Assembly: GCA_044892525.1 (NCBI GenBank)
Contig: CM097887.1
Span: 112,694,397 to 112,758,396, forward strand
Direction of reading: 5' to 3'
From: Schmidtea polychroa
Lineage: Eukaryota
Length of the DNA: 64,000 nucleotides
This document shows positions 22,764 to 59,409 of this stretch, in pieces. The notes beneath the pieces are model-generated. The model was not told the DNA's origin. It saw nothing but the letters and a program-made list of their open reading frames with translations, and ran no database searches. Position 1 is the stretch's first letter. Each line of letters opens with the position of its first letter. The position numbers were made by a program, and so were the translations under genes.

Positions 22764-22805
22764 AAGGAAATCAATGCGATAGGGAAAAAGAAAGGAACTA
22801 AGAAT

Positions 22806-31380: not shown

Positions 31381-33824
31381 ATTTCATTTTAATATCTTAT
31401 AATTTAATATATAATAATTAATTTAATATTAATAATATTTAGTTAATAATTTCAAAATTTTTAATTTATTTAAGTAAAAAGTAAACTCACCGAATAAAAA
31501 ATTTGTACATTTAGTTTTCTTCATTTAACCCCAAAAATCGCTAAAAAATTAATTAATTACTTTTATTCTAAATTTCAATTATTAATTTCATTAAAAGTTA
31601 CTGTAAGAACAGGAATGAGATTCAAAGTTCTAATTGATTTCCCCATATTTGGTTTCAATTTATTATCATTTATAAACTTTGGTCTATAGATCTTAGAAAA
31701 TGTGGGATGACATTCTATTTGTCAAGGAAGAAGTTTTACTTTCAATAAACATTTCAAAATTTCATTAACCCTTTCCTGAATGAGAAGAGGATGAGATTCT
31801 ATTTCGTATTCTCTTTTTAGTCATTCCAATTTTACTTTCTTTTCAAATTCGAGGTAAGGAAACTAAGTTTGACAAACATTAATAATAAAAAACAGAAATT
31901 CTCATATTGGCAGATTGAATTTCATTTAAATTTTTCCTTTTAATCAACAAAATTATATATTAGGTGAAAGTTTAATTAAAAATTAAGCAATATATTTCTC
32001 TTTTTCACTGCCATTGTCTAGCATTAACTATAAGTAAAATTTCTTAATAGAATAATTTTAAGATAAACCTACATAATAATGAAATGAAATAAAAAAAATA
32101 ACAAAAATTAATTATTACCTTGCCTTCTCACAGAAATAAAGGTTGTGATGAAAGTATTGGGAACAATTAAAATGTCTATTATGTTTCTACTACTTTAGTC
32201 ATTCCAATTTTACTTTCTTTTCGAAGTTGCAGAATAAAGTTGGCATTGAGAATGGTAATCGAATAATTGGAGTTTATTATAAATACAAAAGCCAACGAGA
32301 GAGAGAGAGCCTGCCTATCAAACAGCAGGGAGAAATCTATTGAAGAGAATGAGTTGCTGTGTATGATATTATTCCTTCCCGTTGATAGCAAAAAGCACAT
32401 TTTCAGGCACCTAAAATACCGAATCAGAGGAGAGATTTGGTAATGTGTCGGTCAGGCTACTCTCGAGTAGGCAGAGAGTGTGTTTGTGTGCACCAGTTAC
32501 ACCCAATTCCGAAATTGAGTAACCTCTATAATTTACGTTGGTGTGCACACCAGTTGAGTGAGTCACCATTTACGTGAAAATGAAGTTACTCAATTTCATT
32601 TATTCAATAATTTATTAGCAACAAAAATGGTTTTCAGGTAATTTCTTTAATTTCAAGTATATTTTAAGACTTGAATTTTGATCTTATATAATTATGAGAT
32701 CATTATTCAAGTTCTTAAATATTACTGTTAGTCATCATTTATAATATAATATTAATAATTAAATTTCAGGTGTTTTTTAGGAAATTAATGATATTTTATG
32801 CAGTAATATGGAATTATTTCGCTAAAATGTAAGTTAGATATTTTTATATTTATAAATAAATAAAATTAATCACCAAACACATTTATTTTTTTAAGACATT
32901 TAGGGAAAAATCGGCGTACATGAACGAAATAATTTTTTAAATTTTTATAATCTTCTTTCTGCAACTCATTTTCGATGGCTTTTTTCTTTCTGTAAATCAA
33001 AAGATCCCGAAGGACCTTCAATATTTGAAATGCTGCCTTCACACATACTATAAAATATTTTAATAGTTTGTAATTTAATGAATAAAACTTACATTGTATT
33101 TTCTTCTTTTAACCTAAAGCTCAAGGTAGAGCTGTCGGAATCTAAATTAAAATTATTTTCTTCCATTTTTTAATAATTTTAAAATAATTATATTTTAACA
33201 ATATATTAACAGTTATTTGATTCGGAAAAAAAACCTATATAAGAATTTTGCATGTATTTTTCATCATGTGTTTTGTGTTGAGTTATTTTTTCTCACCTTC
33301 ACAAAACCTACAATAAAGTTATTAAATTTCGGAATGATAAATTTCTACACACAGGTAAGTTTGTGTGTTCCTATAATATATATTTATTGATTTTTTTTAG
33401 ATTATAGAAGTTATTAAATTTCGGAATTAGGTGTATGTATAATACACACAAATACACACAAATGCACAGACGCAATAAATGTACGATGGTGAATAATTTT
33501 TTAAATGCTCAGTTGACTACTACTCGATTAATAGGAAATTTTTTTACCGCTTGTGTGTTTGGAAGGGGGTAAAAAAAACTCATAACTTGATGAGGATTAC
33601 ATGTAATATGCGTTTAGACTCACTCAAAAAGTTTCGACAAATTTCGAGATATTAATATCGGAATTCTCAGCCGAATTGTCTGAAATTATGTTGACAAAAT
33701 AAGATCGCAATCGTTCCTAATATGTCGTAGATAATTTTGACTGTGTTCGTGGCAACACATTGCGCTACATTGACGGAATACTTGAAATTGACCTTGGTGG
33801 CGATTTCTATTATGAACTATAGTG

Positions 33825-35218: not shown

Positions 35219-35975
35219 TCAATTTGCCATTAGTATGATATCAGCCCGATGGTCGTGACAGACAGAGATTATGCATTCTCCATCAGCAAAAGGAAGATTT
35301 TGGCTAAGAGCCCAACCATACAGATTATTTATATCAATATATAGTAATTCTGTATTATCAGAAGCAGCAACGTAATGTTTGTTAACAAATGTTAACCCAC
35401 CACGTATTCCTCCTTCGTAAAAATTGAACATTTCCATGTCCTGTAAAAGTTCTATAGGCTCAGTTAATGTCATAAGCGCTGAGGCCCATGACATACCCGG
35501 AATACCATAAAAGTTTAGAGGTTCTAGACCATTGTATGCAATGGCCTTGGCACGGAATTGTTGGAAATAGTCCGCAATGAGGAATACATCCAATTTTTGA
35601 TAAGTTAACATATAGTCAGCCAATTTAGTACAACGTTGTTGAGTCCAAATAAGTTGAGCCTTAGCATACTCATCTTCAGTAACACCAGACCAAATAGGAG
35701 GCAATTCATAAGTGGTTTCAAGTACATCCAAATCAGTCGCATAATCATAAGGAAATATGGCTTTAGCATCTATTATTAGCCTATCAAAAACCAACGAAGT
35801 CAAAGGAAGATCAGTTAGAGTTTTTACAGCCTTAGCCAAAGAACAATTAACAAATTGCATGCTGTCGATAAAACGAACAGCTAATTTTTTAATGTGAACA
35901 ATCATGAAAAGTTTGACAAACGAACTCAAGAATTTGGAAAGGCTTGTGGTGCTTCGCGTTTTCTTTAGCAGATAC
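35219..35975 (-). pseudogene. Protein-primed family B DNA polymerase fragment (Polinton/Maverick type)
   Basis: RFIDSMQF..SL..V..L; LDV.LIADYF..FR; LEPLNFYGIPGMSWA; IELLQD....EGGIRGG; LYIDINNLYGWALSQNLP. Truncated on both sides. Confidence 0.9.
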
Positions 35976-35989
35976 TTCAACATTTTAAA

Positions 35990-37214
35990 CGACAGCGGGG
36001 GAGATAAAGACAATAAAGACGACAATAATGACGAGAGAGACCGAAATGGGAATAAAGAGGAAAAGAAATCAGAGGAGAATAATCAAAGGAATAACGACTC
36101 AAGTACAGAAAAGGAGGAGAACACCCACGGAAACCGAACAAAAGAAGAAAAATCAAACAATGGAAAACAGAGGGTATGCCTACCTTTTACCAACAAGGAA
36201 ATAGAGACAAATATAATATTAATGATAATTGTACTGACCATGATAGAGTTAGTAACAGCCCACGGAGGAACGAGAACGATAAAGGAAACTAAGGTAGCCG
36301 AAAATCAGGACAGTAAAGAGGAAGAATTAAAACAAGAAAAGAAAAAGCAAGTACAAGAGCAACAGTGGGAATTAAAAGAAGAATGGGGCCTAAAGGAAAA
36401 GTGCATACTAGGAAGATGTATGTCTAGAGCGTATCAGAGATTAGTACTGATAAACGAGGACACAGAACCGATAACAGAAGTAAGAATACAAGAAGCATAC
36501 CGAAATCGAGACGGGAAAAGAATAACGAACGTGAAAGGAAAAGAGGTGCACCTAGGAAAAGGAGGTGAAGTAGTAATAACACAGCTCCAACCAAGAAAAG
36601 AACACAAAGTCTGTATTTCAAGATTAGGACCGGGTGAAAAATGCCATCAATATGTGACACAACAACAACCCCCAAAAAAATACACGGTTTGTCCCTGGAG
36701 GAACGAATCAAAAAGGGAATGCCGACGATACCCGGGGAAAAGAGGGAAGAAAAGAAAAAACAACGACGAAAAGGACGAAGGAGGAAAACACAAGAAAACC
36801 GGCGAGGAAGCTCAGGACAACTATGTTTCGGAGGAAGAGATGGAAAAAATACAAAAGATGGCAAAGGAGGGTATGAACGAGGAAATAGCAAGAATGCGAG
36901 AGATGATGAAAGGAAATGGGAAAAGAGGAAACGAGAAAAGTACAGAAGCGATATCAACATTAACAAACGAGGAAAAACCAGAGAGTATAAGCGTAAAGCA
37001 GATGATGTGGATCAGTGGGATAATAATAACAGGGGCATTTCTAATCATAACGGGGGGAACAATAAAAATAATTAAAGATAAACGACATCGCGGAGAACTG
37101 GAGATGACCCGAATCAGAAATTTCCAACATCGAGTGAAACGACCAAGTGATATCAAACAAGAACAGTGGGTGGAGGCCTGGAACGCTCAGCGCCCTCCAA
37201 ACTCACGTATATAG
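35990..37214 (+). CDS. Charged leader, signal/TM segment, FN3-like domain, charged stalk, TM, tail (5' end lost at the junction)
   Basis: IILMIIVLTMIELVTA; GGEVVITQLQPRKEHKVCIS...KCHQYVT; TM MMWISGIIITGAFLIITGGTI. Confidence 0.65.
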
Positions 37215-37374
37215 AAAGGAATATGACTGTATATAATTGTAAAAAGTAAGTATCTTTTATGTATATAACAGTACTATATCTTTATATAAGCGCGGTATCA
37301 ATATTATAAAATAACGGGGATCATAAAATGAAATTAACTTTAGATAAGAGTTGAAAAGTGTATATAAATTAAGA

Positions 37375-37734
37375 ATGGAGCAAGGAAATAACGAAATGAA
37401 CCACAACACAGTAACTGAAGAATTATGGAAGCAACAATGTGCCGTATTAGCACAATTAGTGTCTAATTTGCAAGAACGAGGACTGACGATGCAAAGGAAC
37501 CTAATCGAGAGTATGAACAGAGGATTTAGTTATTTAAAAATAATTGAAGACCAGAGGTTAAAAATCGAACAAATGCAAAGAGAGATAGAGAGGATAACCC
37601 AATATAGCCGAAGACAGGAAATCGAACTAGAAAGAATGATGGAGGAAGCAGAACAGACAGAAATGGAAGACTGGTCAGAATGGTTAACGAACAGGGGAGA
37701 GGGCGGACACGAAGCCGACTCTTCCGAACCATAA
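37375..37734 (+). CDS. Hypothetical coiled-coil protein, acidic tail
   Basis: 119 aa ORF from ATG 37375, heptad-rich, bounded by AT spacers. Confidence 0.6.
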   Translation: MEQGNNEMNHNTVTEELWKQQCAVLAQLVSNLQERGLTMQRNLIESMNRGFSYLKIIEDQRLKIEQMQREIERITQYSRRQEIELERMMEEAEQTEMEDWSEWLTNRGEGGHEADSSEP

Positions 37735-37819
37735 ACCAAACCTAAATTAAAATGTAAATAATTGTAAATAAAATATCGAACCTGTATCGATAAGAACTAT
37801 ATGTATATATAATTATAGA

Positions 37820-39208
37820 ATGGATAAACGACAAAGAGAAGAGTTCAGAGAGATCGTCGAACAAGTCAGAAAATCTACATCGATCAGAATACACAAACAT
37901 GTTATGTGCGGAATATGTGAAAAGTTGCTAAAGGAACCCCACCAAACCCTATGTGGATGCAGATTATGTAAGGAATGTATCAGTGAAGCAATAAAGAATA
38001 GACCACAGTGGTGCCCGGTGTGTAAAGAGACACTAATATCGAGTCTAGAAGACACTAACGAGGATAAAGCCGCAGTGAAAGACATGTTAAACACCAATCT
38101 GGGATGTAAAAATACCCCATGCGAGTGGAAAGGAGTAATATGGAAAGTAATGCAACATATGGGAGAATGTAGGTACAGAGTCGGCCATTGTGAAAGGTGC
38201 CATAAAACCAGTCGAGCAAGCGAAGAAAAAGAGCATCAAAGCCAGTGTGAAGAGAGACTAGAATGATGTGAACATTGTGGAGAAATAGATACGTGGAAAA
38301 ATCTCATCATCAAACATCACAATGTCCAAGAGGAAAAGGTATGTGCAGAGTTCAGTGGGGAATGCCTGAACGGATGCGAGGAAGGGAGAATAATAAAAAT
38401 AGCCCAACACCTAAAGGAATGTGAAATGAAAAGAATGACATGTGTACTAGGTAAATGGGGCTGTCAGAAACTACTACACCGAGGAGAGTTACCACATCAT
38501 TTAGTAGAAAATGCTTCAACCCACGCAGAAATGTGGTCGACTGCGTTACAAGAAAGTGAAGAGAAAGTAAAACAAATGGAGATAGAGATAACATCGTTGA
38601 AAGTGTTAGTCAAAGAACTACTAGAAGAAAGAGAAGCGTTCGAAGAAGCTCGGGCAAACATAAAGATGCAAATAAATCGTATAGAAATCAGCAATAATCA
38701 GGCCAAGGTGCTACATCAAAAGATAACTGAGATAAATCTAAATGAAGTAATACCAACCGCACCCTACGTATGGAAAATAACGGGAGTAAAAGAAAGAATA
38801 CGAAAAGCAAAAACCGGAGAAGAAACAAAAATAACGAGTCCCGCATTCCAGTCTTGGAAAAATGGGTACAAAATGAAAATGAAGATATATCCCAACGGGG
38901 ACGGCACCGGATTAGATACACACTTTTCGGTTTTCTTTCTGTTATGCGAAGGGGAATACGACGAAATAATAGAATGGCCGTTCCAGGCGAAGATCGACAT
39001 CGCACTAATGAACGACCGAAACATCCACGAACAAAGCTTCAAGACGACGGGAAACCAAATGTGTTACCAGAGACCTACGGAAGAAGAAGGATCAGCAACG
39101 GGAGCGCCTACGTTCATTCTACAACAAAAAGTAGAGGATATGGCGAGAAATGACACAGTATATATCAAGATGACCGTGAGGAAAGAGGGGAAGGGTAGAA
39201 CAGAGTAA
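37820..39208 (+). pseudogene. Intronless TRAF-family protein (RING, TRAF zinc fingers, coiled coil, MATH), one in-frame TGA at 38264-66
   Basis: CGICEKLLKEP.Q..CGCRLCKEC....CPVC; CKNTPCEWKG; WKITG..SPAF..GYKMKMKIYPNGDG.G..THFSVF..LCEGEYD.IIEWPF. The two ORF-track pieces share a frame with 53 open codons between them. Confidence 0.92.
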
Positions 39209-39402
39209 CCAATCGAATAATGTGGTATATAATAATCTGTATATATCGATGTATATAACCAATAAAATATTATATAATAATAGTATGAAAAACCCTAAAT
39301 ACGAAAAACCCAAAAATGATGCGAAAAATTTCCGAAGAAACAGTAACTAATGAATAAATTTTTACCATAATAAAAAGATTAATCGATATCTATGATTTAG
39401 AA

Positions 39403-39744
39403 ATGACACAAGAGAAAATAACCGAAACTACGATAGCCCCAACCAATACCAACAAGACACAAATTCGCCGAGAATATAGCGAAAAATGGAACAAAGTAAT
39501 GTTCCAACTAACTAACCTCACCCGAAATTACATCGAAGAAGCTAGAGAAGATGAGAACAGTAAATATCAATGGCTAATACACAATTTAAGAGAGGAGGCT
39601 GAATCGTGCAAAAGAGCGTCGAAATGGGCGTCATTAGAAAATACCCGCCAAGAAGCGCACAGCCACTACTTGAAACAGCTGGTGCAGGAAGCGAGAAAGA
39701 GGCTCACTGACGAAAACGCAAAACGCGAAGCGGAAAACAAATAG
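39403..39744 (+). CDS. Hypothetical helical protein
   Basis: 113 aa ORF; TTTAG|AAATG context. Confidence 0.55.
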   Translation: MTQEKITETTIAPTNTNKTQIRREYSEKWNKVMFQLTNLTRNYIEEAREDENSKYQWLIHNLREEAESCKRASKWASLENTRQEAHSHYLKQLVQEARKRLTDENAKREAENK

Positions 39745-39755
39745 AAGGAAGAAAA

Positions 39756-40414
39756 ATGATGCATTTATTGGCAGAGGCCAGAAAATGGAAAAGACAAAAT
39801 AGTGAAATGAAAAAGGAGATGAAAGAATTGCCCATGAGACTCGGATATGAAAGTGAACAGGGCAAATGGGAACAAAATTTAATAATAAAGGAAGAATTGA
39901 AACGGTTGAGAAAGGTCGCCGCCCGAAGCCAAACATGCAGACAAAGGCTATGGAGTTTGAGCGACATTTGGCAATGAAATGCGACATAAGAGAACACGAG
40001 AATGCAGCAATGGAAGAAATGATACTTCAGCAATCAGGACGAGTCGTGGAACTGGTAAATAAGGTCGCAGCACTGGAACGAGATGTCAATGGATACCAGG
40101 GAGCACTGGAACAAAGAAATATGGTATTAGCAGGAAAAAATAAGAAGTTGGAAAACGAATGGAAAATGTATACCGAAAATCTCAAAAATCTGGAGACAGA
40201 GATCGAGAAATGGAAGGGCGAGGAAAAGATAAAAGAGTTAGATAGACAATTAGAAGCCAAAGATGAAGAGACGAGATACCTCACCTATTTGCTCGACGAG
40301 GAATTGAATATCACTAGAGCATTACGAGATGAAGTTCATGAGTTGAGAGCTCAAATTCCCCAATATTACATACCATATGACATCCAGCGGTCGATAGCGA
40401 TGAAGGCTACGTAG
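39756..40414 (+). pseudogene. Coiled-coil protein, probably one frameshifted ORF
   Basis: Overlapping ORFs 39756-39977 and 39866-40414, E/K/L heptad-rich. Confidence 0.55.
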
Positions 40415-40603
40415 GCCAGGAGGAAACCTTCGTATAAAAGGGATCAAAAAGATAAAAAACTAAAAATCGGGACGTATATCCCAAACAAAAAAATTAAAGT
40501 ATTGTAAAAGTATTCAAGGGATTGTAACCCAAACTATTAAATTTTATATAAATGTATACGTATAAGTCGCACTATAGCGCACCATTAACTGTACATATTA
40601 TAG

Positions 40604-41311
40604 ATATGAAAATCAAGGAAATGATAGAAATCATGAGTGATGTGGAAGAAGGAGAGATTGTAACGGAAACAACAGAAACACAAACGCTAGAAGCAGAATT
40701 GCGGGCAGAGAAGTGTGAAAACGAGAGACTGGTAAACAAGTACATAGAGGACCGGAAAATAATAAAGATATTAAAGAAAGAATGCAGAGTGCTAGGGGAA
40801 GTAAAAAGAGAAGCAGAAGAGGAAAATGAATGGCTTCACGAACAAAGGAATGCGAGGGGAAAACTGGGAACAGATAGCGGAAGAACTATGGAAAGAAAGG
40901 GCAAGCCTTAAAGCAGAAGAAGTGATTGAGGACTACTGGAAAACTGAGGCGAAGGAGCGCCAAACAGCTATAAATAAATTAAAACGACAACTGGAAGAAA
41001 ACCAACGGGAAAGTAAAGAAATGAGGAAGTGGGTCCGCAAATATAGAGAAATAGAAAGAAAACATCAACAACAAAATTACCTGCAAGAAAACGAACAAGA
41101 CTTCCTACAAATTGAGCTAAAAAGAAACCTTGAAAAGAAAAGGGAAGAAATTAGACGCTTGGAAAAAGAAATTAGACATTTAAAGAGAGAAGCCCGTGAA
41201 AAAGACCGACAATTGGAAATGCTGCCCGAGTTAAGACACAGGGTTATTAAAGCAGAGTCCACCTTGATGAGAATCGCCGAAAATAACCCCAAATCAGAAC
41301 CATTAAATTAA
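40604..41311 (+). pseudogene. Coiled-coil protein, frameshifted
   Basis: Overlapping ORFs 40552-40911 and 40826-41311 with continuous heptads. Confidence 0.55.
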
Positions 41312-41347
41312 GGGTCACTAAGACCAATTGTAAATAAAACATAATAA

Positions 41348-42004
41348 ATGTATAATAGTATCATGCGAGGCGAGATGATGATAACAATGATGGTATTGAT
41401 GATTCTGATGGAGAGCCAACAAATAAATGCCCAACCGAAAACCGTACGAGATTACCGAAATCAAAATCAAGAACCCAAACAAGAATCCTGCCAATGCACA
41501 TACCCTATGACCGTAAAAACCAATATTATCCAAACCATTCAATCAACCCGATCACACATCAACAACATCCGAACAATGTGTAAAAAGAATCCCATTTGTA
41601 AAATGATAAACAAACAAATCCTCGAACAAATCCAACAATTCGACCAGTTGGAACAACAAATGCAACAAGAAAATTTTGGAAATCTTGTAGAAAAGCCAAA
41701 AACACCCCCAGAAACTAGCGAGGCTTATTATCTCATGTGTGTAGTGATCACCGAAACTACTTTATTGTGTCTGGTAACTCTCTTAAAAATTTACGAAATA
41801 AAGAAACAATGTCAAAGTACGAAAACCAACAACACCCAACCAAACCCAGATGAAATAACTAACACCATCGCAAGCCCACCCAGATTATCCAGTAACGGAA
41901 CTCCGCAACCAACATCCAGTCGTCAAAATTACATCAATCTCCAAATTCATCAACCACCCCAACCAGGCCGTCAGAGCAATCCATCTATATCGTCACTGAA
42001 CTAA
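41348..42004 (+). CDS. Predicted single-pass membrane protein (signal peptide, Cys-containing ectodomain, TM, P/S/Q-rich tail)
   Basis: MMITMMVLMILMESQQ; CQC...CKKNPIC; TM AYYLMCVVITETTLLCLVTLL; tail with NYINL. Confidence 0.65.
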   Translation: MYNSIMRGEMMITMMVLMILMESQQINAQPKTVRDYRNQNQEPKQESCQCTYPMTVKTNIIQTIQSTRSHINNIRTMCKKNPICKMINKQILEQIQQFDQLEQQMQQENFGNLVEKPKTPPETSEAYYLMCVVITETTLLCLVTLLKIYEIKKQCQSTKTNNTQPNPDEITNTIASPPRLSSNGTPQPTSSRQNYINLQIHQPPQPGRQSNPSISSLN

Positions 42005-42239
42005 AACATTGTGTGTAAATTAATGTGTATATGAACTATCACCTTAAGTGATACTGGCTTGGTCTTGCTTTGACCTTTATCTTACAATAAAATTTTTATC
42101 ATTGTTGTATAATTTTTCTCGTTTGTGTTATATTTTTTTTATGAATGAATGAGTTAAGTTAATTATGCAATTGCGGGACGCAATTTTGATGGGTCCCCGA
42201 GTGATTTGTTGGGCTGAATCGAAAATTTAATCGTTGAAA

Positions 42240-42870
42240 AATAAGAAAGTAGGAAAGTAGAACATTAAGGAAAATAAAAATAAAATAAATGAAATCAGAG
42301 ATAAAATAGAATAAGATATAAGGAAAATAATAATTAAGACATAAGAATTAAAACAAAAAATAAAATTAAGAAAAGATTAAAATAGAACAACAAGTTGACA
42401 AATAAATAAGGAGGAATTCAAGAAATAATAAGGAAATTAAGGAAATAAATAGAAAAACATATTAAAAATAAAGAAAATAAGGAAAAACAACCTAAAAACA
42501 AGAAAATTATATTAAATTAATAGAAATAAGCGGTACTCAACTCTGATTGGTCCGCACAAATAAGAATTTGCTATATATACAACCACCAAAATCATTAAAT
42601 TTACTGTTAACCCCGAGCATTTTATAGGTAAGAGAGAATGTTTAAATTGTCTACTGTTAACCCCGAGCATTTTATAGACATCCACAACTTACGGAGACAC
42701 ATTCAAGAATCAGAGACACTAACCGAGCAACAGTTCATTCAGAGAATTCATAGCTACTTACAATCAATTCGAAGCTAAGCGATTTGTCACAGCAATCGAT
42801 ATTCCATCAACAAACTCATTCAGAGCGACTCACATTAATTTTTCGATCCAGCCTAATTCGACAGTAAGGG
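42240..42870 (+). promoter_or_regulatory. Promoter module 1: A-rich tract, CTGATTGG (42543), TATA (~42572), short exon, GTAAG donor (42864)
   Basis: Same order as modules at 52210 and 59410. Confidence 0.55.
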
Positions 42871-44848
42871 ATTTTATTTCATTTATTTATTTAAATTCGA
42901 AGTTAACAGTATTATGTATCTTTAATGAATAATTAAAAATTTTGAAAAATAACATTGACTCTCTTTTCATTTGATCCCAATTAATGATTTCGATAAAGTA
43001 AATAATTTAAAGGTCTAAAAGTAGTTATTAGTGATAAATGAGCGATTGCACAATCTTTATGATTACTGTTATGAAATACCTTTTTTATGATTTTTTAAAG
43101 TAACGAGTAACGTGGAGTTGAGGAACCGCAGATCATGGTATGAGGTGCCTTCGGGAGCTCTGCCGGTGGATCTGAGGTTCTTCAATCACGCAGCTAGATT
43201 GGGCCGAAATGTGAAGGTTTCTTCGCGGGTCCAATCGCTGAAGGATTGACTCAAAATTAGACAGAATGAGGAAAAACGATTTAGATTAGTTATATGAATT
43301 TAGAACGAATACCGAAATGTACAGTGATTGAGGTGGACATTACATCTGCAGTGAGTTTATTTCCATCCTGAGGAACCATGCGATCCTGAGTCTAACTTTT
43401 CGCTAGCATCGTCGTAATCAGTCCAATTTGACTCTAACATCGTACTAAATTCCACACTTATGTTCGGTTAATTAAAAATTAGGACGAATTCTATATTCCT
43501 TCATTTTTCAGTTAAAAATAAATAAAGCTCTAATGTATAAATAACATTTATTAAAATTAAAGTAAAGACATAACTCCTGATAATCATTTATTTAACTTAT
43601 ACTTACTAGTAAACTAGAAATACCCGTTCAGCAGTTTCCACACCATCACATCAGGATGTCTATCATCGAAATAATATCCACATAGAGTAGGGAGTTGAAT
43701 TGTAGAACTTTTTCATCAAGTAATATCTAGAATTGAGGAAAATCTCCAAACATAGTAAATAATTCCAAAAAATCCAAACGAGAGAATTGTCATGAAAATT
43801 GAACGGTTGAGAATTTGTCCATATGATGTGCGAGTGCAGATAAATTTTCCATTGAGTAACACTAGCATGACTATGGGTAGCAACACCAGCGTTGGAATTA
43901 CCTGAGAATTACACACGAGGATAGATGATAATCACGCAGCGAGTGCATGGCTAATCATAGTAGTCTGTGTTCCATATGTCGTATTTAGTGTAGATTCTAG
44001 CATTACGACTGATAACGACGGGATATTGATTACTCGTCATAGTAGCTCCATGAATAGCAGATGATGGCTCTCATGGATTTTGTGTTGAAATGCGATCAAC
44101 GAAAGATAACTACATGCAGTAACATTTCACAAACCACTCATCTGGAAAATTTTCGAATGAATTAAATTTAACTGATAATAGAATGACTAAATGGATAATA
44201 ATAGACAATTATAATTTGAATTAAATAATTTAAAGGATAACCGAATGACCAAGTGCGTAATTGTAGACCAGTATGAGTTAACCTAAATAATTTAAACGGT
44301 AAAGGGCATTGTTAAATTAAGTGGGGATAATTGGGACCTGCTAACTAATGATGGAAAACTAAAGCCAAGCGTTAATAATAGAGTCGGAAATTGTAAATTC
44401 GAGTGTTACGAGTGATCTAACGAACAACTAATAGTAATTTTGAATAATAGGTAAATTAATTCGAGTTCGTGAATAATAACATTTTGAATAATCACGGTAA
44501 ATGTTTTAAATGATAATTAAGGGTGTTTTAACAGCTACTCAAATGTACCTTTTAATAATCAGATATGTTTATAGACCAACAATCATGGGGCAATTTAGTA
44601 ATTAATAAACCTTCTCAATTTCTAAGTTAAAGATTTATTTGCATTCGTCAATGCTATCCCTTTACTGAACTATTCGTTAAATAAAAGCGATGTTACAAAA
44701 TCGTCTAGAAGGGAAATCCATCCCCCCACTTATTCCGAATACCCGCTAACTGCTGACAGTGACTAACCAACCTCATTCGACCTGCGATCTTATTCATATA
44801 AAAGATTTAGTAAGTCGTTATAGTTCCTTATTTTACAGTTGATCAATT

Positions 44849-45592
44849 ATGCTGCCAACTACGAAATCCACCTTACGTCCTTGCTTCTCTTGCGAGGACA
44901 AAAACGCGATTATAAAGGATCTTCAGGCCCAGATCGGGCGCTACAAAAAGAAGATAGATGAGCTGGAGGGCACTTGGTTTACCCCCGCTCAGATGAAGGA
45001 GACTCAAAAGAAGCTCCATCGTAGTGAGCATTGTCGGGACGCGCTCATCTCGGAAAGCCGTGCCCAGAGAAGCCTTATTAAAGAACAGTCAGAAGCGCTG
45101 CACAAAGTCTACGTACAGGCAGCTACCACACAAAAAATCGTACAGATTCCCATCAAAGAGGCCGATAACATCTTCCCGCCTCATCATAACCCCTCATCAA
45201 AACCATCTCCACCGTTCAAGAGACCATGTCGAGACTGCGTGGAGACCGAACTGTCACCTATGCGACCGGACGTTGTCATCACAGGTACTAGTAAGACCTC
45301 AACTGCTGGTACCTCTGTATCCGCTGCGCTTCAGCAAGTCGCATCTACAAGCAAACCCAAACAATTATCTCGTGCGGAACGTAAGAAGAGACAGCGTGAG
45401 CGCGCATCCACCAAGCCAAACATCCCATCGATAGAAAACTCAACCAGTGGTAGTAGTTCGCGCGTGTCCATCGACTTGACAGTAGGACCCCCGGCGCGCA
45501 TCATCTCAGCAGCTGGCGTGACGTTGGAGGAAAACGCCTCCGAATTCTTTAATCTGGATGAGTTACTCGCCGACACCGAATGGGGAAAGTAA
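44849..45592 (+). CDS. Repeated ORF family copy B, 247 aa (CxxC, coiled coil, Arg-rich motif, acidic-hydrophobic tail)
   Basis: Intact ORF; TTTTACAG acceptor 10 nt upstream; homologs at 46467, 54817, 57219, 58400, 27995(-). Confidence 0.85.
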   Translation: MLPTTKSTLRPCFSCEDKNAIIKDLQAQIGRYKKKIDELEGTWFTPAQMKETQKKLHRSEHCRDALISESRAQRSLIKEQSEALHKVYVQAATTQKIVQIPIKEADNIFPPHHNPSSKPSPPFKRPCRDCVETELSPMRPDVVITGTSKTSTAGTSVSAALQQVASTSKPKQLSRAERKKRQRERASTKPNIPSIENSTSGSSSRVSIDLTVGPPARIISAAGVTLEENASEFFNLDELLADTEWGK

Positions 45593-45862
45593 GAGAACCA
45601 CAGCGGCATTCCCGAAGCCTGTTGCGAAGTCGAACTACATTTGTTGGGGTGTTTTTCTTTTCCTTCGACAAACATTCGTGATGTGTACAGTTGAATCCTT
45701 GTGTCTAAATGTTGAAATTAATAAATTTTGTTGTTTTATATATTTTCGTTTATGAATAGTCAGACTTTGATTAAATAGGTTAAATAAAGCGTCTTCGAGA
45801 GCTAAGGAATAATCCCCGATATGTTTTCGCGAAATTCTGACAAACGGTGGTGTAATGAGATG

Positions 45863-46134
45863 GACGTAAGCCCTTCTATCGGCAGTCGTGAATGGGAAGT
45901 CGAGGCCTCAGCAAGGAGTAGTTTTAAGGCAGAAGCTCACCTGCCTGCTGGCGTCTCGCCTGCATAGTGCAGTACCAACGTGAAGTAATTCACGGGCACT
46001 ATGTTGGAGGAAAGTTATGTGGGGTTTCACTCCAGGTTGACAAGGCAGTAGCACATTTTATTCGAGATGGACAATCCACCCTTAGACCAGCCAATATCGT
46101 AGAGTAGTCAGCCGAGGTGTAACCCCAACATAAT
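45863..46134 (+). ncRNA. Structured RNA motif copy B (core 45863-46004, second domain 46014-46134)
   Basis: Stems GGCAG/CTGCC, GCATAGTGC/GCACTATGT, CGTGAA-GTAA-TTCACG; GTTATGTGGGG/CCCCAACATAAT. Confidence 0.7.
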
Positions 46135-46466
46135 GGTGGATACGAGCCCAGGGTAGTAATTAAATATCAACCTTAGATGAACTTACTTGCGTAACCACTT
46201 AATCGAATAAATCAAAGGGAGAGCTGCGAATTAAAATCGTTTCACCAACATGGGAAATTTCACCATCTTTTTCGCATTCGTCAAATCGACAATTTACACT
46301 TAAGTTGAATTGTGCTGTAAACATCTTAGTAACAGAGTTGGATGTTAAGATAAGTTCTTTCTTGGTGTTCGTTGAATACCCGCCCGCGAATAGCCAGTTA
46401 GTCGAGTCTATATTTTAAAATTGATTCTTGTATATTCCACATCTCACATTTGCCTTTATAGTTATC

Positions 46467-47216
46467 ATGACACCAACTGCCAAGCCTGCGTTACGTCCTT
46501 GTTTTTCTTGCGCGGACAAAAACGCCATCATCAAGGACTTACAAACCCAGATTGGGAAATACAAAAGGAAGATCGATGAGCTAGAAGGGACATGGTTCAG
46601 TCCCGCTCAGATGAAAGAGACCCAGAAGAAGCTCCATCGTAGTGAGCATTGCCGGGACACTCTAATCTCTGAGAGCCGTGCCCAGAGAAGTCTAATCAAG
46701 GAGCAGTCGGAGGCGCTGCACAAAGTCTATATCCAGGCAGCCGCCACCCGGCAAATTGTCCAAATTCCTATAGGCGAAGCCGATCAGCTCTTCCCAAGGC
46801 ACCACGACACCTCGTCAAAGTCGTCGCCACTATCTAGAAAGCCTTGCAAAGGGTGCGTAGAGACTCAGCTCTCGCCCAAGCCAGCCGACGTGATCTTTAC
46901 CGGCACCAGTAAAACGACTCAATCTATCGTTTCTACCTCCGCCCTGCCTCTCGTCATTAGCAGCTCCTCAAAGCCTAAGCGTCGGCAACTGTCACGTGCT
47001 GAACGCAAAAAGAGACAGCGCGAGCGTGCATCTACAAAGCCGAACGTCTCCTCAACGGAAATTCCAACCAGCATCAACGATTCTCACACGACCATAGACC
47101 TAACCACTGGACCCCCAGCACGGGTTATTTCAGCAACTGGAGTAACCTGGGAGGAGAACGCCTCCGAGTTCTTTGATCTGGATGAGTTACTCGCCGATAC
47201 TGAATGGGAGAAATAG
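46467..47216 (+). CDS. Repeated ORF family copy C, 249 aa
   Basis: Intact from ATG 46467; CTTTATAG acceptor 5 nt upstream; 73/79 identical to copy B in the N-terminal core. Confidence 0.85.
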   Translation: MTPTAKPALRPCFSCADKNAIIKDLQTQIGKYKRKIDELEGTWFSPAQMKETQKKLHRSEHCRDTLISESRAQRSLIKEQSEALHKVYIQAAATRQIVQIPIGEADQLFPRHHDTSSKSSPLSRKPCKGCVETQLSPKPADVIFTGTSKTTQSIVSTSALPLVISSSSKPKRRQLSRAERKKRQRERASTKPNVSSTEIPTSINDSHTTIDLTTGPPARVISATGVTWEENASEFFDLDELLADTEWEK

Positions 47217-47491
47217 GAGGCCACGGTGAGCGTTCATAATGATATCCAAAGACTCCATCTACCTTTGTTGTGATATTTTCCCCTCTTATTAAAAACATGG
47301 AAATGTGCATGGTTAAGTTCTGTGTTGTAATATAGTAACCAATAAACCTTACTGTCTATTTTGTTTTCTTTTCCTTTCAAGATTAGTCTGATTATGATTA
47401 AGGACGTCGAGCTAAAAACTTTAGAGGCCCAGTAAACAAATGCCGATCTGTGCTCAACGAAATTTCGCTAGGCGGTTGGGTACTGAGAACG

Positions 47492-47764
47492 GACGTAAGC
47501 CCTTCTATCGGCAGTCGTAAGTGGAAAGTCGAGGCCTCAGCAAAGAGTAGTTTTAAGGCAGAAGCTCACCTGCTTGCTGGCGTCTCGCCTGCATAGTGCA
47601 GTACCAACGTGGAGCAATTCACGGGCACTATGTTTGAGGTCAAGTTATGTGAGGTCCCACTCTGAGTTGAACGGCGAAAACGGATAATATACGAGGTGGA
47701 CCATCATCCCTTAGCGAAAAGAGGTATCGTGGACAGAATCAATCGAGTGGTACCCCAGCATAAC
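47492..47764 (+). ncRNA. Structured RNA motif copy C (core 47492-47633, second domain 47644-47764)
   Basis: 7 differences from B over ~142 nt of core; GCAA tetraloop in place of GTAA. Confidence 0.7.
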
Positions 47765-52075: not shown

Positions 52076-52209
52076 AAAGTGCTGTGCTAAAACCTGAATT
52101 TTCTATAAAGTGTTGGGCTTAAAGTTATAGAAACCGGAATGAAGCTGTAAGAATTATAAAAATCGGAATGAAGCTGTAAGAATTAGAAATGGGGACGAAT
52201 TGTTAAAAG

Positions 52210-52885
52210 CTACCCTTTTTACAAATAAATAAAAATTAAATACCATATTAAATAAAGTTGAGTGGAATAGTTAAGAAAATTAAATAATAAAAGGAGAAAA
52301 CAAGAAATTAAAAACAACAAGAAATCCGTGTAAGGAAACCATGAATACTACAAAAAAAAACTACAAATCAAGTAACCATACAAACAAATAAAAGAAAATA
52401 ATTAAATAGGACAACGAAACAACAACGGAGAATGAAAAATAAATAAAGTTCAGCATAAAAACATAAAATAAACACAAAAGAAAGTTAAAGTAGCAAACCA
52501 CACGCAGAATTATCAACGGAAACCCACTAAAATATGTAAAATATAAAAATTAAATAACCGAATAAAATAGATAATTAAAACAAATAAATAATATAAGGAA
52601 AATGAATAAAAACCTAAAAAATAAAGAAAATAGTGAAATTACACCCCAACTAAGTCCTGATTGGACGAAAATTAATATATAAAGCGGTCATTTAGTTAGT
52701 TCTAAATTTCTAAATTCTTAGGACAGACTCCTACTAAGTAAGAACCAGTAAAATCACAGGGACTTACGATAAAACTCCAAGGACAACATTCTAGATATCA
52801 AATCAATTATTACAGCTTCATTCCGAAGGACTCAACGAATCGATTCAGCCTATTGAACAACAGAATTAAGACAAAAGTAAAACGA
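52210..52885 (+). promoter_or_regulatory. Promoter module 2
   Basis: A-rich tract then TCCTGATTGGACGAAAATTAATATATAA, 28 nt identical to module 3; donor-like GTAAAA at 52877. Confidence 0.6.
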
Positions 52886-54816
52886 TTTTTATTTTTATTT
52901 TATTTCATTCATCCACATATATATTAAATCACGAATGTAGTTGTATTAATTAAAATATTATGATTAACCAAAATATCCAAATTTTCTCTTCATGGAGCCC
53001 AGCGACGATACCGTCTGGACGTCTGTGTATGATTGCTAATGCCGCCCCGAAAATTACGATGCAGGATATCCATGAATTACAACGATTACGAGATTTCAAG
53101 AGGATTTGAAGGTCATCAGCAACACTAGTCGGGAATTATGATAATAATATTGATTTTGGAGAAAGATTTTGTAGCAGACGTATAGATTGAGTTTAATGCT
53201 TCGGTATAAGAAATGACAAATGGGGTGATGATCATCATATGCAGAGGCAAAGGATATGGTCGCTGGTAAGTAGTATTTATGTATAATGATTGGTATTTCA
53301 TATATGTTGATTTTGATTTATTATGATAAACATGCAAATAAGGTGTCGAACCGTCTAGCGTGGTCGTCCGATAATAGTCGGTACTTGTACCGGTGGTTTT
53401 CGGGTGAACCATGAGAGGTGGTAAGACGGAAAGTAGCTCGACAAAAAAATTGTTAAATGCAGAGAGGAGTGGTAGTATCATCTTCGAGGTGTAAGAAAAA
53501 TCCAATGTAATCACAGGCGATAATTCAAAGATAATTCAAATTACAACAATTTTGAAATTGTAGGCTTTCCAGACACAGAATAGTCACTGAGAGGACTTTC
53601 GTAGATCAGTTATTTAATTTCCGAGGATTTGCTAGCCGACACCGTCTCAATAATCACCAGTATCTTTTCACGTTAATTCTTTACCAATCTCATTCTCGGT
53701 TTGATAACAATTATCTCACGTTTAGTACGACATTTTCTGCGAAATCGGATTTACAAACATGCACAGATATGGACTAGGGAGAATTTTTCAATAAATCCAG
53801 TTATCGTTTTAGTAGCTACAATCCATCATTTTCCCATGAAAATTCATCGACGTAAATTCTCGCGATAGATCAATCAGTTGCCTCATCGAAATAAACAAGA
53901 TGTAGGTATCAGCTTCGCCGTCTCGTCCGGTTGTTACGAGGTAATTAAGATTGTTTACAAGTTTTCGTAAACACATTAAGAATCCTTCATGTACATTGCC
54001 AGATCTATTATCTTAAATCACTTTTAAACAATTCGGGTCGACCGCGACAAAATTCAGTTTTAACAATCATCGTAAGATTGACCATTAAACCGATAGTCTT
54101 GATCTACTACCGGATGAACCGGATAAACACAATAGAAGCCATAAATCAATTCGGAAATTTCACCTTCAACTAACGCTATCATTTAGGTAATAAAAATGAC
54201 ATAATCCTTGCAGAATAAATAATATCATTGTGTAAAATAAATAAGCTAATTCTCGTAAAGTACATAATTTAATTCTCGTAAAATAAATGATAAAATTCTA
54301 GTAAAATAAATAAATAAATGCCATTTAGTGCCACTCACGAATTGAGAATTTGACAACCATATAGCTATATTATAATTACTGAGGTATTCAGTTCATTCAG
54401 TCGAAAAGATACTTAGAGATTTAAAGAAATCATATTTCTAGAATACTAGCACCAATCAACCGAGTAAATACAAGCGTTAAGAGACAGTTGTATGCCTTTT
54501 CCGAGTTACACAAATTTCGAGTTTCATAATGATATCGGACGTCACCATACTTTCGTAATACCCCCACAGTTAACCTATGACCTATCTAGATAATTTGCTA
54601 CACATTAAATTATTAATTTGTTTCATTTTTGATCAAGTCCTTCCCACCCTTGAACTTAATCGACTGCATAAATTTCCGAGCTAGGTGTATGATGCGAATA
54701 CTACAAATGATTACACCATATAGTTATCATTCTTGGGAAATCTGACCAACGAGCACGTCCGAATATTGATTAGGTAAACACCTCAACGAAGTAAAAATTG
54801 CATATTATATTTAGCT

Positions 54817-55390
54817 ATGTCGGAGCCAAATTTACCTCCTCGCGGACCAAAACCGTCCTTTCCATGTTCAGACAAAAACATGGATATCAAGAAGCTGCAC
54901 ATAGGGGTTCTCAAAAAACGTATCGACACGCTAGAACACACGTGGTTCTCCCCACCACAAACGAAAGAGGAGAAGATGAAGGTACTCAGATTAGAGCACT
55001 GCCATAACAGTCTCTTAGAAGAAAGTCGTCAACGACTGACTATTAAAGCACAATCCGAAGCCCTCCACAAGATCTACTCCGAATCGGAATTACAGAAACG
55101 AGTTAGAGAATACCCGATCAAGGACGGGGTAAAGGTATTCCCGCTTCACCATCGAGCGGAGGAGAAATCATTGAGCCCGTTCTGAGCAAGGCAGCGGAAA
55201 ACCCTACTCTTTCTACACCTATCACTCATGAGACCATTCCTATCACTCACCCAGTCAATACCGAAAAATCAGTCAACTCAACTCCTGAGAAACGTAAACG
55301 GCCGCCTAGAGCCGATCGAACAGCAAAACGAAGAGAAAAGATGGAGGCATTAGAGGCTTCGTTATTTGCTCCCCAATCCGCTGTTGGGCT
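54817..55390 (+). pseudogene. Repeated ORF family copy, frameshifted at ~55180 and 3'-truncated
   Basis: FPCSDKN.DIKKL..LKKRID.LE.TWFSPPQ.KEE..LEHC..QSEALHKIY; KRKRPPRADR in the next frame; TTTAG acceptor 2 nt before ATG. Confidence 0.8.
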
Positions 55391-57218
55391 AAACTTTGAG
55401 GGTGAGAAAACTGGATCGAATGAGAAAAAGAAGCCCGAAAAAATTAATAAAATAAGATAAAAATAACTTGCAACCAAAATCTTAGTAATATATAGGAAGA
55501 AACAAATAAAATACCAATAAAAGAAATAGGAATAAGTAACAAAATAATAAAACCCTTAAGATTTAAAAATAAGACAAAAAGGAAACTACCTAATGCGCAT
55601 AACAGATAAAGGGGAAATAGAATAGCAAAAATGTAAGAAAAATAAACGAGAAATTAAAGAAATAGAATAAAAATAAAACCATTCCTAAATAAATTCGTAA
55701 GCTAATTAAAACAAAAAATTATATCGCAAAAAAATGACAATAAATCTATAGAAGATAAGAGAAAAACAATAAACATTAAGAAAATAATAAAATAATAATA
55801 AAAAATAAAATAAGGTCACTAAAATTCACCATATTATCTCCAGCAGATTTGGAAGAGACAGCGAATTGAACGAATCTCTTGAGTAGAAGAGCTTACAGGA
55901 CGTCTGCAAAATATTCAGTTCGACTCTTTCCTGACTCATAATATAGAGGTACACAATTTTCGTGTAAGGTGTAGTCACTAGAAATCTTGGTCGGAGACGT
56001 TTATAACCAGCACAATCCAACGTCTTTCCGAATAGACTGACATGATTTGACATGAAAGTATGATAGCATCAATAGAGTGTTAGCGGCTAAACCTGATTTT
56101 TCGTCTAACTAAACGTCCGAAGCAGGATCTGCAATTAATGTCTTTGACAGACAATTATCAGATAAGAATCGCCTCTACATAGAATTAATTCTCCTTCGAT
56201 AAGTAAGGTAAACAATCGCCCGGAGTTATGACAGACTGCACGAGAATTAGCATTTGATTAGAGTTGCCCGGAGAATCACTGACCGTTCTTGATAAGTCAC
56301 GATCGAGGCAAATCGGCCCACACACTGAACTGCTGGGTGTTTACCATAGTAGAGATAAAAATCTCCGACATATCACCAGCTAAGACAACTTCTAGATATC
56401 GGCATGAATTTCCAGCAGACACAGCAATTGATAATGTCAACAATTAGGAAAATCGCTAGTTCAGCCAACTTACCGACGAAAAATTTCCATTTGTCAGCAA
56501 GATTAGATCATGTCAAGAGGCTCATTACAATACAGGCACACTAACGCATTGCCTAATTTTTAGGATAGTAGGTATTCCCGCTTCACGGCAATGATGAGGT
56601 GAGGCACAGTCGTAGCCAGTTCGTGTGCTCCGAATAGATAATGGGGTTAAGACATAATTAGATGCTGTAAAAATCCCCATTTCATTTTTAGACGGGAATA
56701 TCTCTAATGATTACCTAACATTACATAATCACGATTCATGTTCCTACGATAATTTTCACTTCCCCTAACAAAATGTCTAGTGCGTGGGCGATATCGGTTA
56801 ACATACTTACTAGAAAGGAATCGCTGGCTTATGAATAATACGCGCAATCAACTAAAACAAATTCACCTAATGGTCGGGCGTCAAATGCAGTTACCAGCCA
56901 GTAGCAATGAGGGGCAAGAGCGATATTAGGTACACATAAAATCTACTAATAAAAATAAAATAATGATTGTCAAATTAAACTAATCACCATATTGGTAATA
57001 TCGCGAATGGAGTTGATAATCCCCGTTTTCTTTTGCATGAATTGCGTTAATGGAGCGTGGGTCACCTGTGGGTAAATTTTGAATGTCATGCGAGTGGTTA
57101 AAATTTACTAGGAGTCGCAGTAGAAGGTGGCGAACCACAGTCGGTATCCACTATCTGATACTATAATAATGTATGAACGATTGTAAATGGTGATGATAGG
57201 AATTTTCTTTAACTCTAG

Positions 57219-57983
57219 ATGACCGCACCGACCAAATCAGTCAAAGATCTTCGTCCGTGTTTCTCTTGTTCGGACAAAAATGAAGATATCAAGAAGCTAA
57301 ACATCTATATCGGGGCCTTGAAGAAACGGATTGATCTATACGAGGGCATGTGGTTCTCCCCGCCACAAATGAAGGAGGAGCGTAGTAAAATTTTGAGATT
57401 GGAGCACTGCCGTGACAGTCTCCTGGAAGAAAGTAGGTGCCAGAGGCTAACGATAAAAGCCCAATCAGAGGCCCTACATAAGATTTATACGGACGTCGAG
57501 ATTTCTAAAAGGGTCCGAGAATATCCAATCCAAGACGGGACTAATGTGTTCCCGATACACCATCAGTCAGCTGGAGCCCCATCAACGACTAGCTGCAAGG
57601 GACATGGCTCACAATCGTCACCCATTCTCGCTCCAGCTCTCTCAGGTTCTAGGCCTATGACAAAGGGTCCATCGGACCCCATCTTGGCTCCGATTCTTCA
57701 GCCTCACCATGTGCAACCATCAGTAGAAACCACAACGCCAAATCGGAAACGTAAGAGGCCGACGCGCTCTGAGAAGAATCAAAAGCGCAGGAACGCCATC
57801 GCCGCGCTAGAGACTTCACTATCAGTGGCCCAATCCACCATCAAGGAGATCTTAAATTCCTATTCAATTCCAACTAAGGAAGTATTCCGGGTGGTTCCGG
57901 CCGACGGTATAAAGTTCATTGCAGATCGCCGGTTGCCCGTGGACATAGATGAAATGCTAGCTGAAGGGGAAGTTTTCCCGTGA
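57219..57983 (+). CDS. Repeated ORF family copy D, 254 aa
   Basis: Intact ORF; CTCTAG|ATG acceptor; RPCFSC...WFSPPQMKEE...QSEALHKIY; RKRKRPTRSEK; VDIDEMLAEGE. Confidence 0.85.
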   Translation: MTAPTKSVKDLRPCFSCSDKNEDIKKLNIYIGALKKRIDLYEGMWFSPPQMKEERSKILRLEHCRDSLLEESRCQRLTIKAQSEALHKIYTDVEISKRVREYPIQDGTNVFPIHHQSAGAPSTTSCKGHGSQSSPILAPALSGSRPMTKGPSDPILAPILQPHHVQPSVETTTPNRKRKRPTRSEKNQKRRNAIAALETSLSVAQSTIKEILNSYSIPTKEVFRVVPADGIKFIADRRLPVDIDEMLAEGEVFP

Positions 57984-58265
57984 TCTGGAACAGCACCAAC
58001 TTCCAATCCATTTCCTCTGAAAATGATCCTCAGCATCGTCTGACAATCTGTCTGTATGTTGCCCTCTGCTTTGTAATCTTCTATGTAACAAGTTATTGTA
58101 ATTCGTGTGTTTTGTTGGATTAATATAATTTTTCTTGGCATTTGATGAGTTATTTACGAGATTGTTAAGTGAATTGCACGACTTGATTGATAAATTGAAT
58201 GTAAGTCATCAGATGAGGGTCGTCCCCCTGGACCAGGGTCGTACCGAGTTATGTATGAAAGCATG

Positions 58266-58402
58266 GGTAAGTCCTTCTACGGCACCTTAGAACCCGAACC
58301 GTGAGTGAGTTAATAGTAGTCCTAAGGCAGGGGCTCACCTGTTAGCGAACTCCAACCCATGTGCTCATCACCAACGTGTGAACATCATCACGGGCACACA
58401 TG
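58266..58402 (+). ncRNA. Structured RNA motif copy D
   Basis: GGTAAGTCCTTCTACGGC...TAGT..TAAGGCAG-GGGCTCAC-CTG...CACCAA-CGTG..CACG-G-GCAC. Confidence 0.6.
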
Positions 58403-58660
58403 AGGGATATCAGGAAAATCATCACAGATATGCTGGGAGAGGGGACTGAGCGAACTAGACCAATGGTATGCCCTGTACTGAAAACTTTCTTTCCTCCCCA
58501 CATAGCCAACACCGCTATCACTAAGATCAGTACTAACCCTCAGCCAACGGTACTACCTGACTCATTCAGAATAATTTCACCGGCAATAGTGGCACTGGCG
58601 AGAGATCCTGGACTGCAGGTTGATATTGATGCCCTGCAGACCGAGGGAGAAATGATGTGA
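58400..58660 (+). pseudogene. C-terminal remnant of the repeated ORF family
   Basis: RIISPAIVALARDPGLQVDIDALQTEGE aligns with copy D RVVPADGIKFIADRRLPVDIDEMLAEGE. Confidence 0.55.
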
Positions 58661-59354: not shown

Positions 59355-59409
59355 AACAAAAGTAATTAAATAAAATCTTGTTTTAACATCAAATTGGGGT
59401 AATCAGTCA

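Follow-up and report, generated by a model that had tools for sequence, protein, structure and literature searches.

Two open reading frames (ORFs) lie head to tail, 1.6 kb apart, in a 64,000-nucleotide (nt) stretch of the Schmidtea polychroa genome (contig CM097887.1, positions 112,694,397 to 112,758,396, forward strand; hereafter the window). ORF B (44849–45592, + strand) encodes 247 amino acids (aa) and ORF C (46467–47216, + strand) encodes 249 aa. The original prediction placed both in an orphan protein family. We find that each is almost certainly an element gene, borne in the long terminal repeats (LTRs) of giant Burro-like gypsy retrotransposons, and not a host gene. We further propose, tentatively, that this gene, which likely lies in the repeat (R) region of the LTR and is likely expressed from spliced RNA only, encodes a protein predicted to bind the unspliced RNA of the element through an arginine-rich helix, promoting accumulation or nuclear export of that RNA.

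An LTR gene of a giant gypsy-like element

A search of this genome with the conserved core of B gave 150 scored matches with 89–100% identity, the best of 6120 candidates. The core of E, another intact copy in the window (57219–57983, 254 aa), gave a further 150 scored matches with 84–100% identity, the best of 6288 candidates. These numbers are lower bounds (at least 300 places) and not copy numbers. Among the 150 E-core matches listed, 19 same-strand pairs are spaced 26.1–26.6 kb apart. Four pairs were read over their full length, and all four are single elements of 29.3–30.6 kb with the ORF intact in both LTRs. The LTRs of these four elements are 3.76–4.19 kb long, 99.7–100% identical, and have the termini TGTTGGG...CCAACA. 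Each element has a 4 bp target-site duplication (ATTC, TTAT, GTAG and CTTT) and a primer-binding site that starts with TGG, 7 nt past the end of the 5ʹ LTR, which we take to be of the tRNA-Pro type. The sequence CTCAGCC in the primer-binding site complements the first bases of the B-type LTR (elements L024, L027, L034 and L066).

In both elements scanned, the region between the LTRs encodes Gag with CCHC knuckles, a fusion glycoprotein, protease, reverse transcriptase, RNase H and integrase (PR-RT-RH-IN), ankyrins, and then a TRAF gene. The order PR-RT-RH-IN is that of Ty3/gypsy elements. The env-like fusion protein is in frame between gag and protease, ankyrin and MATH/TRAF domains are present, and the E-type element has a single uninterrupted frame of at least 4,635 aa. 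A polypurine tract before the 3ʹ LTR is absent from all four full elements; a conserved motif that is not purine-rich is found there instead. At this site, both in the window (42172–42206) and in the four full elements, there are a conserved GC-rich motif and a small inverted repeat. Plus-strand priming of the elements may be unusual.

By published description, the element matches Burro/GYPSM1. Burro/GYPSM1 are giant planarian gypsy-like elements of ~30 kb with an env-like protein, ankyrins, and TRAF/MATH, BIR, BCL2-like and dUTPase-like motifs, some of which were originally detected by HHpred (PMC6431247). The shared features are the size of ~30 kb, Gag-CCHC, a fusion glycoprotein in frame between gag and protease, PR-RT-RH-IN, ankyrins, TRAF/MATH and the presence of many copies. 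In contrast to that description, TRAF is here encoded by its own ORF, 3ʹ of pol. At E 0.001, Pfam found no BIR, BCL2 or dUTPase in nine stretches covering parts of elements. The text examined on Burro/GYPSM1 names no LTR-internal gene (PMC6431247).

Two elements, L027–L029 (G000:C1:212.1 Mb) and L066–L069 (G000:C1:81.69 Mb), are 97–100% identical in Gag, Env, PR, RT, RH, IN and ankyrin, but only 36% identical in the LTR ORF, 68% in TRAF/MATH and 23% in the last accessory ORF. Because two elements so alike in the polyprotein have such different ORFs, the LTR/ORF module moves apart from gag-pol; the LTR and the 3ʹ accessory module appear, from these comparisons, to have been swapped by recombination. 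Of five further pairs checked, one (L073/L074) proved to be a duplication exceeding LTR length, and so is not an LTR pair. Runs of four and three ORF matches with even spacing of 33.2 kb and 26.4 kb (G000:C1:145063723–145163640 and C1:72646551–72699609) are probably tandem elements with common LTRs.

In the window, ORF B lies in the 3ʹ LTR of a truncated element and ORF C in the remnant of a second LTR:

35980–42206 (+): 3ʹ internal part of a Burro-like element, 5ʹ-truncated; 76–89% DNA identity to the four full elements
within 35980–42206 (+): RING-TRAF-MATH gene, split over two frames, and further accessory ORFs; Pfam RING, zf-TRAF and MATH
42172–42206 (+): conserved motif at the expected place of the polypurine tract, not purine-rich; same or near-identical in 4/4 full elements
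42207–46130 (+): 3ʹ LTR of the B element, 3924 bp, TGTTGGG...CCCAACA
42545–42577 (+): predicted LTR promoter, with a reverse CCAAT box (42545) and a TATA box (42572)
42602–42627 (+): predicted exon 1, from the inferred start at TATA+30; no ATG; first copy of a ~25-nt repeat
42628–42677 (+): putative GT-AG mini-intron, 50 nt, its last ~25 nt repeating exon 1
43108–43245 (+): double RNA hairpin, candidate binding site, inside the segment predicted to be excluded from the ORF mRNA and retained in genomic RNA
44822–44838 (+): pyrimidine tract and AG, predicted splice acceptor 10 nt 5ʹ of the ATG of ORF B
45720–45725 (+): AATAAA with a GT-rich tract after it, predicted poly(A) signal near the end of R
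45863–46012 (+): conserved structured block, predicted U5 (the unique 5ʹ region), with donor-like GTAAG at 45866; found in 62/67 copies
46131–47760 (+): LTR remnant (3ʹ part, 1630 bp) of another subfamily, holding ORF C; cut at 46131 by the B element

Eight loci that are 93–95% identical to 46131–47760 run on upstream as unbroken LTR, without the LTR end of B. Because the LTR end of B interrupts an LTR of C that is unbroken at these eight loci, B and C are neighbours through nested insertion; what had been taken for members of an orphan family are copies of one retrotransposon gene inside LTRs, with no tandem gene duplication. In view of the full elements with paired LTRs, and of a B/C junction that is an LTR end, we rejected both Penelope-type and tandem-gene readings.

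The claim that the proteins are under purifying selection was correct. The earlier counts of 15 synonymous and 5 non-synonymous codon differences between B and C, over the 39 codons from RPCFSC to PAQ, are exact, and the 79-codon core is identical at 73/79 residues, as claimed, with 30 synonymous and 6 non-synonymous differences. The ratio of non-synonymous to synonymous substitution rates (dN/dS) for the B/C core is 0.026 by the Nei-Gojobori method (NG86), with synonymous sites near saturation (proportion of synonymous differences, pS, 0.68). Codon maximum likelihood over many copies (Muse-Gaut model, kappa fixed at 1) gave an omega far below 1: 0.137 over 242 codons of 32 B-type copies and 0.107 over 234 codons of 14 E-type copies, on a sample of only the 46 intact ORFs of 240–256 aa among the top matches, which favours low omega. 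Setting omega to 1 costs 498 and 418 log-likelihood units, respectively. Pairwise core dN/dS is 0.03–0.10 among diverged copies; in seven near-identical pairs it is 0.47, and 0.72 over the whole ORF. A dN/dS that is low between diverged copies and high between near-identical ones is expected of a mobile-element gene that is selected while transposing and decays once inserted.

Predicted start site, splicing and R region

What transcript would express a gene inside an LTR? All eight LTRs of the full elements have a reverse CCAAT box, a TATA box and an AG/GTAA splice donor near the 5ʹ end. Genome-wide, there are 449 exact matches to the B-type form of this layout and 447 to the E-type form; reversed controls gave 0. 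The ~25 nt before the donor recur 44–54 nt downstream, again with an AG end. The two repeat copies within one LTR agree at 20/20 positions in 35 of 47 distinct promoters (60 loci), and at 18/20 or more in 44 of 47; between lineages, the exon-1 repeat agrees at ~11/20 positions (control, 10.9). Identity of the repeat copies climbs from 0.1–0.6 to 0.82–1.0 at TATA+30, which is the usual distance from TATA box to start site, and drops past the donor. From this pattern, a start site at TATA+30, 2.2 kb upstream of the ORF, is likely.

We propose that RNA starts at TATA+30 and that splicing removes the 50-nt first intron at the 5ʹ end of what becomes the packaged RNA. The minus-strand DNA would then reach the cap, jump to the unspliced 3ʹ copy, and overwrite the end of the intron with exon 1. 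Under this proposal, exon 1 and the intron end are identical because the spliced 5ʹ end was copied over the unspliced 3ʹ copy, and the exon-1 repeat would be a footprint that gives both start site and splicing from DNA alone. For one repeat type, that of the B LTR, the mini-intron is precisely absent from 18 LTRs and kept in 148, and 12 of the 18 make six LTR pairs. Past the repeat, copies differ by 4, 5, 31 or 35 nt, with an AG end in all six comparisons, which amount to about two to three independent breakpoints. These AG-ended length differences fit alternative acceptors.

A pyrimidine tract with YAG lies 0–10 nt before the ORF ATG in 67/68 copies, versus 35/565 other ATGs in eight LTRs. 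The offsets of the acceptor from the ATG are 0, 2, 5, 9 and 10 (for ORF C, the AG is 5 nt 5ʹ of the ATG); because they vary, the upstream exon is not in a fixed frame. Between start and ORF there are 40–56 ATGs, none of them in exon 1. The protein would therefore need a further splice, which genomic RNA must avoid, and the ORF is likely translated only from spliced RNA. We compared contigs of four sequencing runs with 42207–47760 (278, 28, 0 and 1218 records); among the 15 listed of 30 joints, none runs from donor to ORF acceptor, which is no evidence either way. Two gapped patterns for spliced retrocopies joined onto the ORF acceptor gave two unspliced matches and no match, respectively; copying into DNA is not to be expected for a short spliced mRNA that lacks a primer-binding site.

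Downstream of the ORF, AATAAA occurs between the stop codon and the U5 block in all 29 B-type copies; in the 18 E-type copies AATAAA occurs in 5 and AATATA in 15. The predicted R is 3.0–3.4 kb and the predicted U5 0.37–0.41 kb in 8/8 LTRs, and we consider it very probable, on the layout of these signals, that the ORF lies in R, of about 3.1 kb. Retroviral R regions are 15–250 nt long (PMC12789967). An R that contains a gene and exceeds the retroviral range more than tenfold would alter the annotation of such LTRs and of their solo copies.

Two parts of this predicted transcript have conserved structure. Folding of the hairpin at 43108–43245, ~0.4–0.8 kb downstream of the first donor, gives z-scores of -6.1 for the + strand and -3.2 for the - strand. 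Across 16 distinct copies of the B type, 97.5% of alignment cells pair and 10 of 53 pairs are changed on both sides, a level reached in 0/500 shuffles; the structure was derived from the same alignment, and related sequences can beat the shuffle control. In the U5 block (45863–46012), 11/21 pairs are changed on both sides across B and E types; folding of the single sequence is not unusual (z -0.6). The GTAAG of this block lies ~145 nt past the poly(A) signal. In HIV-1 and foamy viruses, a splice donor suppresses the 5ʹ poly(A) site (PMC12789967). Neither hairpin nor U5 block has an Rfam match at E up to 1, and hence neither was identified as a known ribozyme or non-coding RNA.

A possible Rev-like regulator and its rivals

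The protein encoded by ORF B has, in order, a CxxC motif, a heptad stretch, a conserved helical core, an S/T/P linker, an Arg-rich motif (aa 169–185) and an acidic-hydrophobic tail. Most of these parts had been noted in the original prediction and are present. The claimed coiled coil corresponds to a heptad stretch at residues 18–42, with hydrophobic a/d positions at 0.86 versus 0.09 elsewhere; the putative basic helix has 9–10 K/R in 17 aa in 7/7 representatives; and the tail has a net charge of -5.8. CxxC is kept in this genome (C12 in 46/46 copies, C15 in 45/46) but is absent from all 14 distant relatives examined. In all, five Cys/His residues are nearly invariant, being present in 45–46 of 46 copies. 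Two motifs quoted earlier, RKRKRPTRSEK and LPVDIDEMLAEGE, come from copy E and not from B or C.

The orphan status of the protein also stands: no Pfam family scores above its cut-off, the PDB contains no sequence match, and a PDB profile search gave 0 matches. A word-indexed homologue search with B alone gave 0 among 982 candidates, and the ESM Atlas gave no match at 0.9 or above, its structure rows having a query template-modelling (TM) score below 0.5. A profile of 35 copies found 16 proteins (P0001–P0016) among 1.84 billion. These distant relatives have the same helical core (hhalign probability 98% for P0003), and Arg-rich windows (at least 6 R in 17) occur in 9 of 14, for example TQRRRPNRNSRRRERRR. 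Thirteen of the 16 are in protein records with unrelated Pfam domains (transporter, peptidase, phosphatase, actin and others). Such mixed records are most likely gene-prediction joins that take in an LTR exon; in practice, these LTR ORFs are mistaken for host genes. Two of the distant relatives, taken as queries, gave only 31–51% matches in this genome, and hence come from other elements.

We propose that the 2.2-kb segment from the mini-intron to the ORF acceptor would be spliced out for the protein and kept in genomic RNA to rebuild the LTR. The covarying hairpin in this segment would be the likely binding site of the protein, which is predicted to self-associate through its heptad stretch and would raise accumulation or export of unspliced element RNA, as Rev and CERV do. 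Rev-like feedback is the best single reading because it brings together a retained, spliceable segment, a hairpin within it, an Arg-rich protein produced once that segment is removed, and the precedent of CERV, which is encoded by the Cer1 element of Caenorhabditis elegans and is needed for export of unspliced RNA (PMC10309623). The Arg-rich windows of the distant relatives also speak for it, and one of these relatives, P0004, has a weak Pfam REV match (E 0.0013, 19.1 bits), below the cut-off of 22. An intact solo LTR would then be a complete gene, supplying the protein in trans. With still less assurance, we suggest that the LTR is a complete intron-containing gene, in which a 3-kb R would encode both a Rev-like protein and its RNA target, solo LTRs would act in trans, and reverse transcription would copy the spliced 5ʹ end over the unspliced 3ʹ copy, writing alternative splice sites into DNA.

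Several observations weigh against Rev-like feedback. Pfam and PDB revealed no significant relationship by sequence with Rev, Rex, Rec or Tat; CERV was not compared directly. The Rev profile PF00424 scored above cut-off in 0/35 local copies. The original prediction left the tail as either activation- or export-type, for which there are established patterns, the acidic-activator PhixxPhiPhi and the leucine-rich export signal. The activator-type pattern is present in 46/46 copies, but the export consensus, scored in the last 45 aa, is present in only 5/46; its matches elsewhere in the protein differ between lineages. Furthermore, the basic helix may serve only for nuclear localisation. The hairpin loop motif recurs at 15/22 B-type promoter loci but only 7/25 E-type loci, and slippage between repeat copies could also give the mini-intron loss.

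The main rival, close behind, has the same LTR gene and transcript, but the protein would be an activator of the LTR promoter, either Tat-like on a nascent-RNA hairpin or Tas/Tax-like on DNA, with the acidic tail as the activating part. We regard this as possible but rather unlikely. The charge and universal PhixxPhiPhi pattern of the tail are in its favour, as are the five conserved Cys/His, which could bind zinc, the position of the hairpin past the first donor, and the fact that ORF and promoter are inherited together. However, TAR-type elements are at the very 5ʹ end of R (PMC12789967), whereas here the hairpin is 500 nt in. The distant relatives also fit it poorly, since they lack CxxC (14/14) and often keep the Arg-rich motif (9/14), and an activator leaves the handling of unspliced RNA unexplained.

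An alternative, which we consider improbable, is that the protein is an anti-silencing or host-modulating factor, acting against silencing by PIWI-interacting RNAs (piRNAs) or chromatin, or against cell death, like the TRAF and ankyrin cargo, with no binding to element RNA. Host-modulating domains are part of Burro (PMC6431247), which SMEDWI-2 represses (PMC8532177), and the ORF diverges faster than pol. Nonetheless, selection on the core is strongly purifying and not diversifying, and no homology to a host protein was found in the searches described above.

A reading slightly less probable again concerns the layout and is compatible with any function: the ORF would lie in U3 (the unique 3ʹ region), as does sag of mouse mammary tumour virus (MMTV), with genomic RNA starting past the ORF and the upstream TATA box serving the ORF mRNA only. 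This is a known arrangement for an LTR-encoded gene, and TATAWA does occur between stop codon and U5 block in 13/29 B-type and 7/18 E-type copies. However, a CCAAT-TATA pair is found there in only 1/47 copies, and both a repeat homogenised exactly from TATA+30 to the donor and losses with AG ends need an upstream 5ʹ end that is reverse-transcribed. Lastly, a host orphan family grown by tandem duplication, as the head-to-tail pair under purifying selection might suggest, is refuted for these copies by the U5 block in 62/67 copies, by young elements with the ORF in both LTRs and by a B/C junction at an LTR end; a single domesticated copy elsewhere was not searched for. A selected regulator gene inside an LTR would be one testable switch, open to RNA interference (RNAi).

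The rest of the window and comparison with known systems

Downstream of ORF C, the window contains two nested solo LTRs:

52111–59358 (+): solo LTR of a second lineage; target-site duplication AAAG
from 54817 (+), inside 52111–59358: ORF D, broken, with a frameshift after 122 codons and then interrupted by LTR E
55382–58511 (+): solo LTR E, inside the LTR of D; target-site duplication CCGC; holds intact ORF E

Solo LTR E is ~1 kb shorter than its relatives and has no match to the promoter motif. Two Burro-type insertions in the window (46130 and 55382) sit inside another Burro-type LTR. A further piece of LTR promoter with the exon-1 repeat, at 59811–59960, has the donor GC instead of GT. On the - strand at 35219–36082, at the truncated 5ʹ edge of the B element, there is a fragment of a protein-primed-type DNA polymerase B (PF03175), probably a Polinton remnant. 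The window also includes a Tc1/mariner-type element that has inverted repeats and a DDE_3 transposase frame of 329 aa (6541–7870); a decayed gypsy element of a different kind, in which a Monjiviricetes-type fusion glycoprotein lies upstream of PR-RT (8915–14457); a small gypsy element with ~118-bp terminal repeats that are 96.6% identical and an 862-aa RT-RH-IN frame (22634–27195); and a mir-753 precursor that scores above the Rfam cut-off and weakly resembles bantam (32660–32721). We take mir-753 to be a planarian family.

The kind of element, accessory regulators, and LTR-encoded ORFs in retroviruses are already known. Our literature search found no description of a gene in a Burro LTR, nor of an R of such size; the original Burro/GYPSM1 papers, Repbase and figures were outside its scope and may show it. 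Three supplement files of PMC11410931 do not contain the word "Burro". Burro elements rank with the most active transposons of planarian stem cells (PMC6884822), and the texts on them that we examined contain no account of how RNA of such size, with strong splice and poly(A) signals, is handled.

CERV is a precedent for the proposed function. Like the protein described here, it is an accessory orphan protein encoded by an LTR retrotransposon; it has a Cys-rich part and a heptad stretch (in CERV, a leucine zipper), and it is made from spliced mRNA (PMC10309623), as is predicted here. Unlike the LTR ORF, CERV is 517 aa long, overlaps gag and is not in the LTR (PMC10309623). The likeness is one of description, with no sequence likeness in library searches, and the export function is here predicted only.

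The predicted system resembles HIV-1 Rev and the Rev response element (RRE), and likewise Rex, Rem and Rec, in having a Rev-resembling Arg-rich motif and a structured RNA inside a segment that would be kept only in unspliced RNA. It differs from HIV-1 Rev in the length of the protein (250 aa), in its long helical core, in the lack of a clear leucine-rich export signal, and in having gene and RNA element both in the LTR.

MMTV sag and lentiviral nef lie in U3 or overlap the LTR. The gene described here is likewise inside the LTR and is predicted to be expressed from a spliced mRNA; the MMTV Sag mRNA is singly spliced (PMC12789967). In contrast to sag and nef, which are upstream of the start site, the ORF here appears to be downstream of it, in R. 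The additional ORFs of the plant LTR retrotransposons Grande, RIRE2 and Retand are also conserved orphan ORFs present in most copies of a family (PMC7264820). Those ORFs are internal, mostly between pol and the 3ʹ LTR (PMC7264820), whereas the gene of this Burro-like element is inside the LTR itself.

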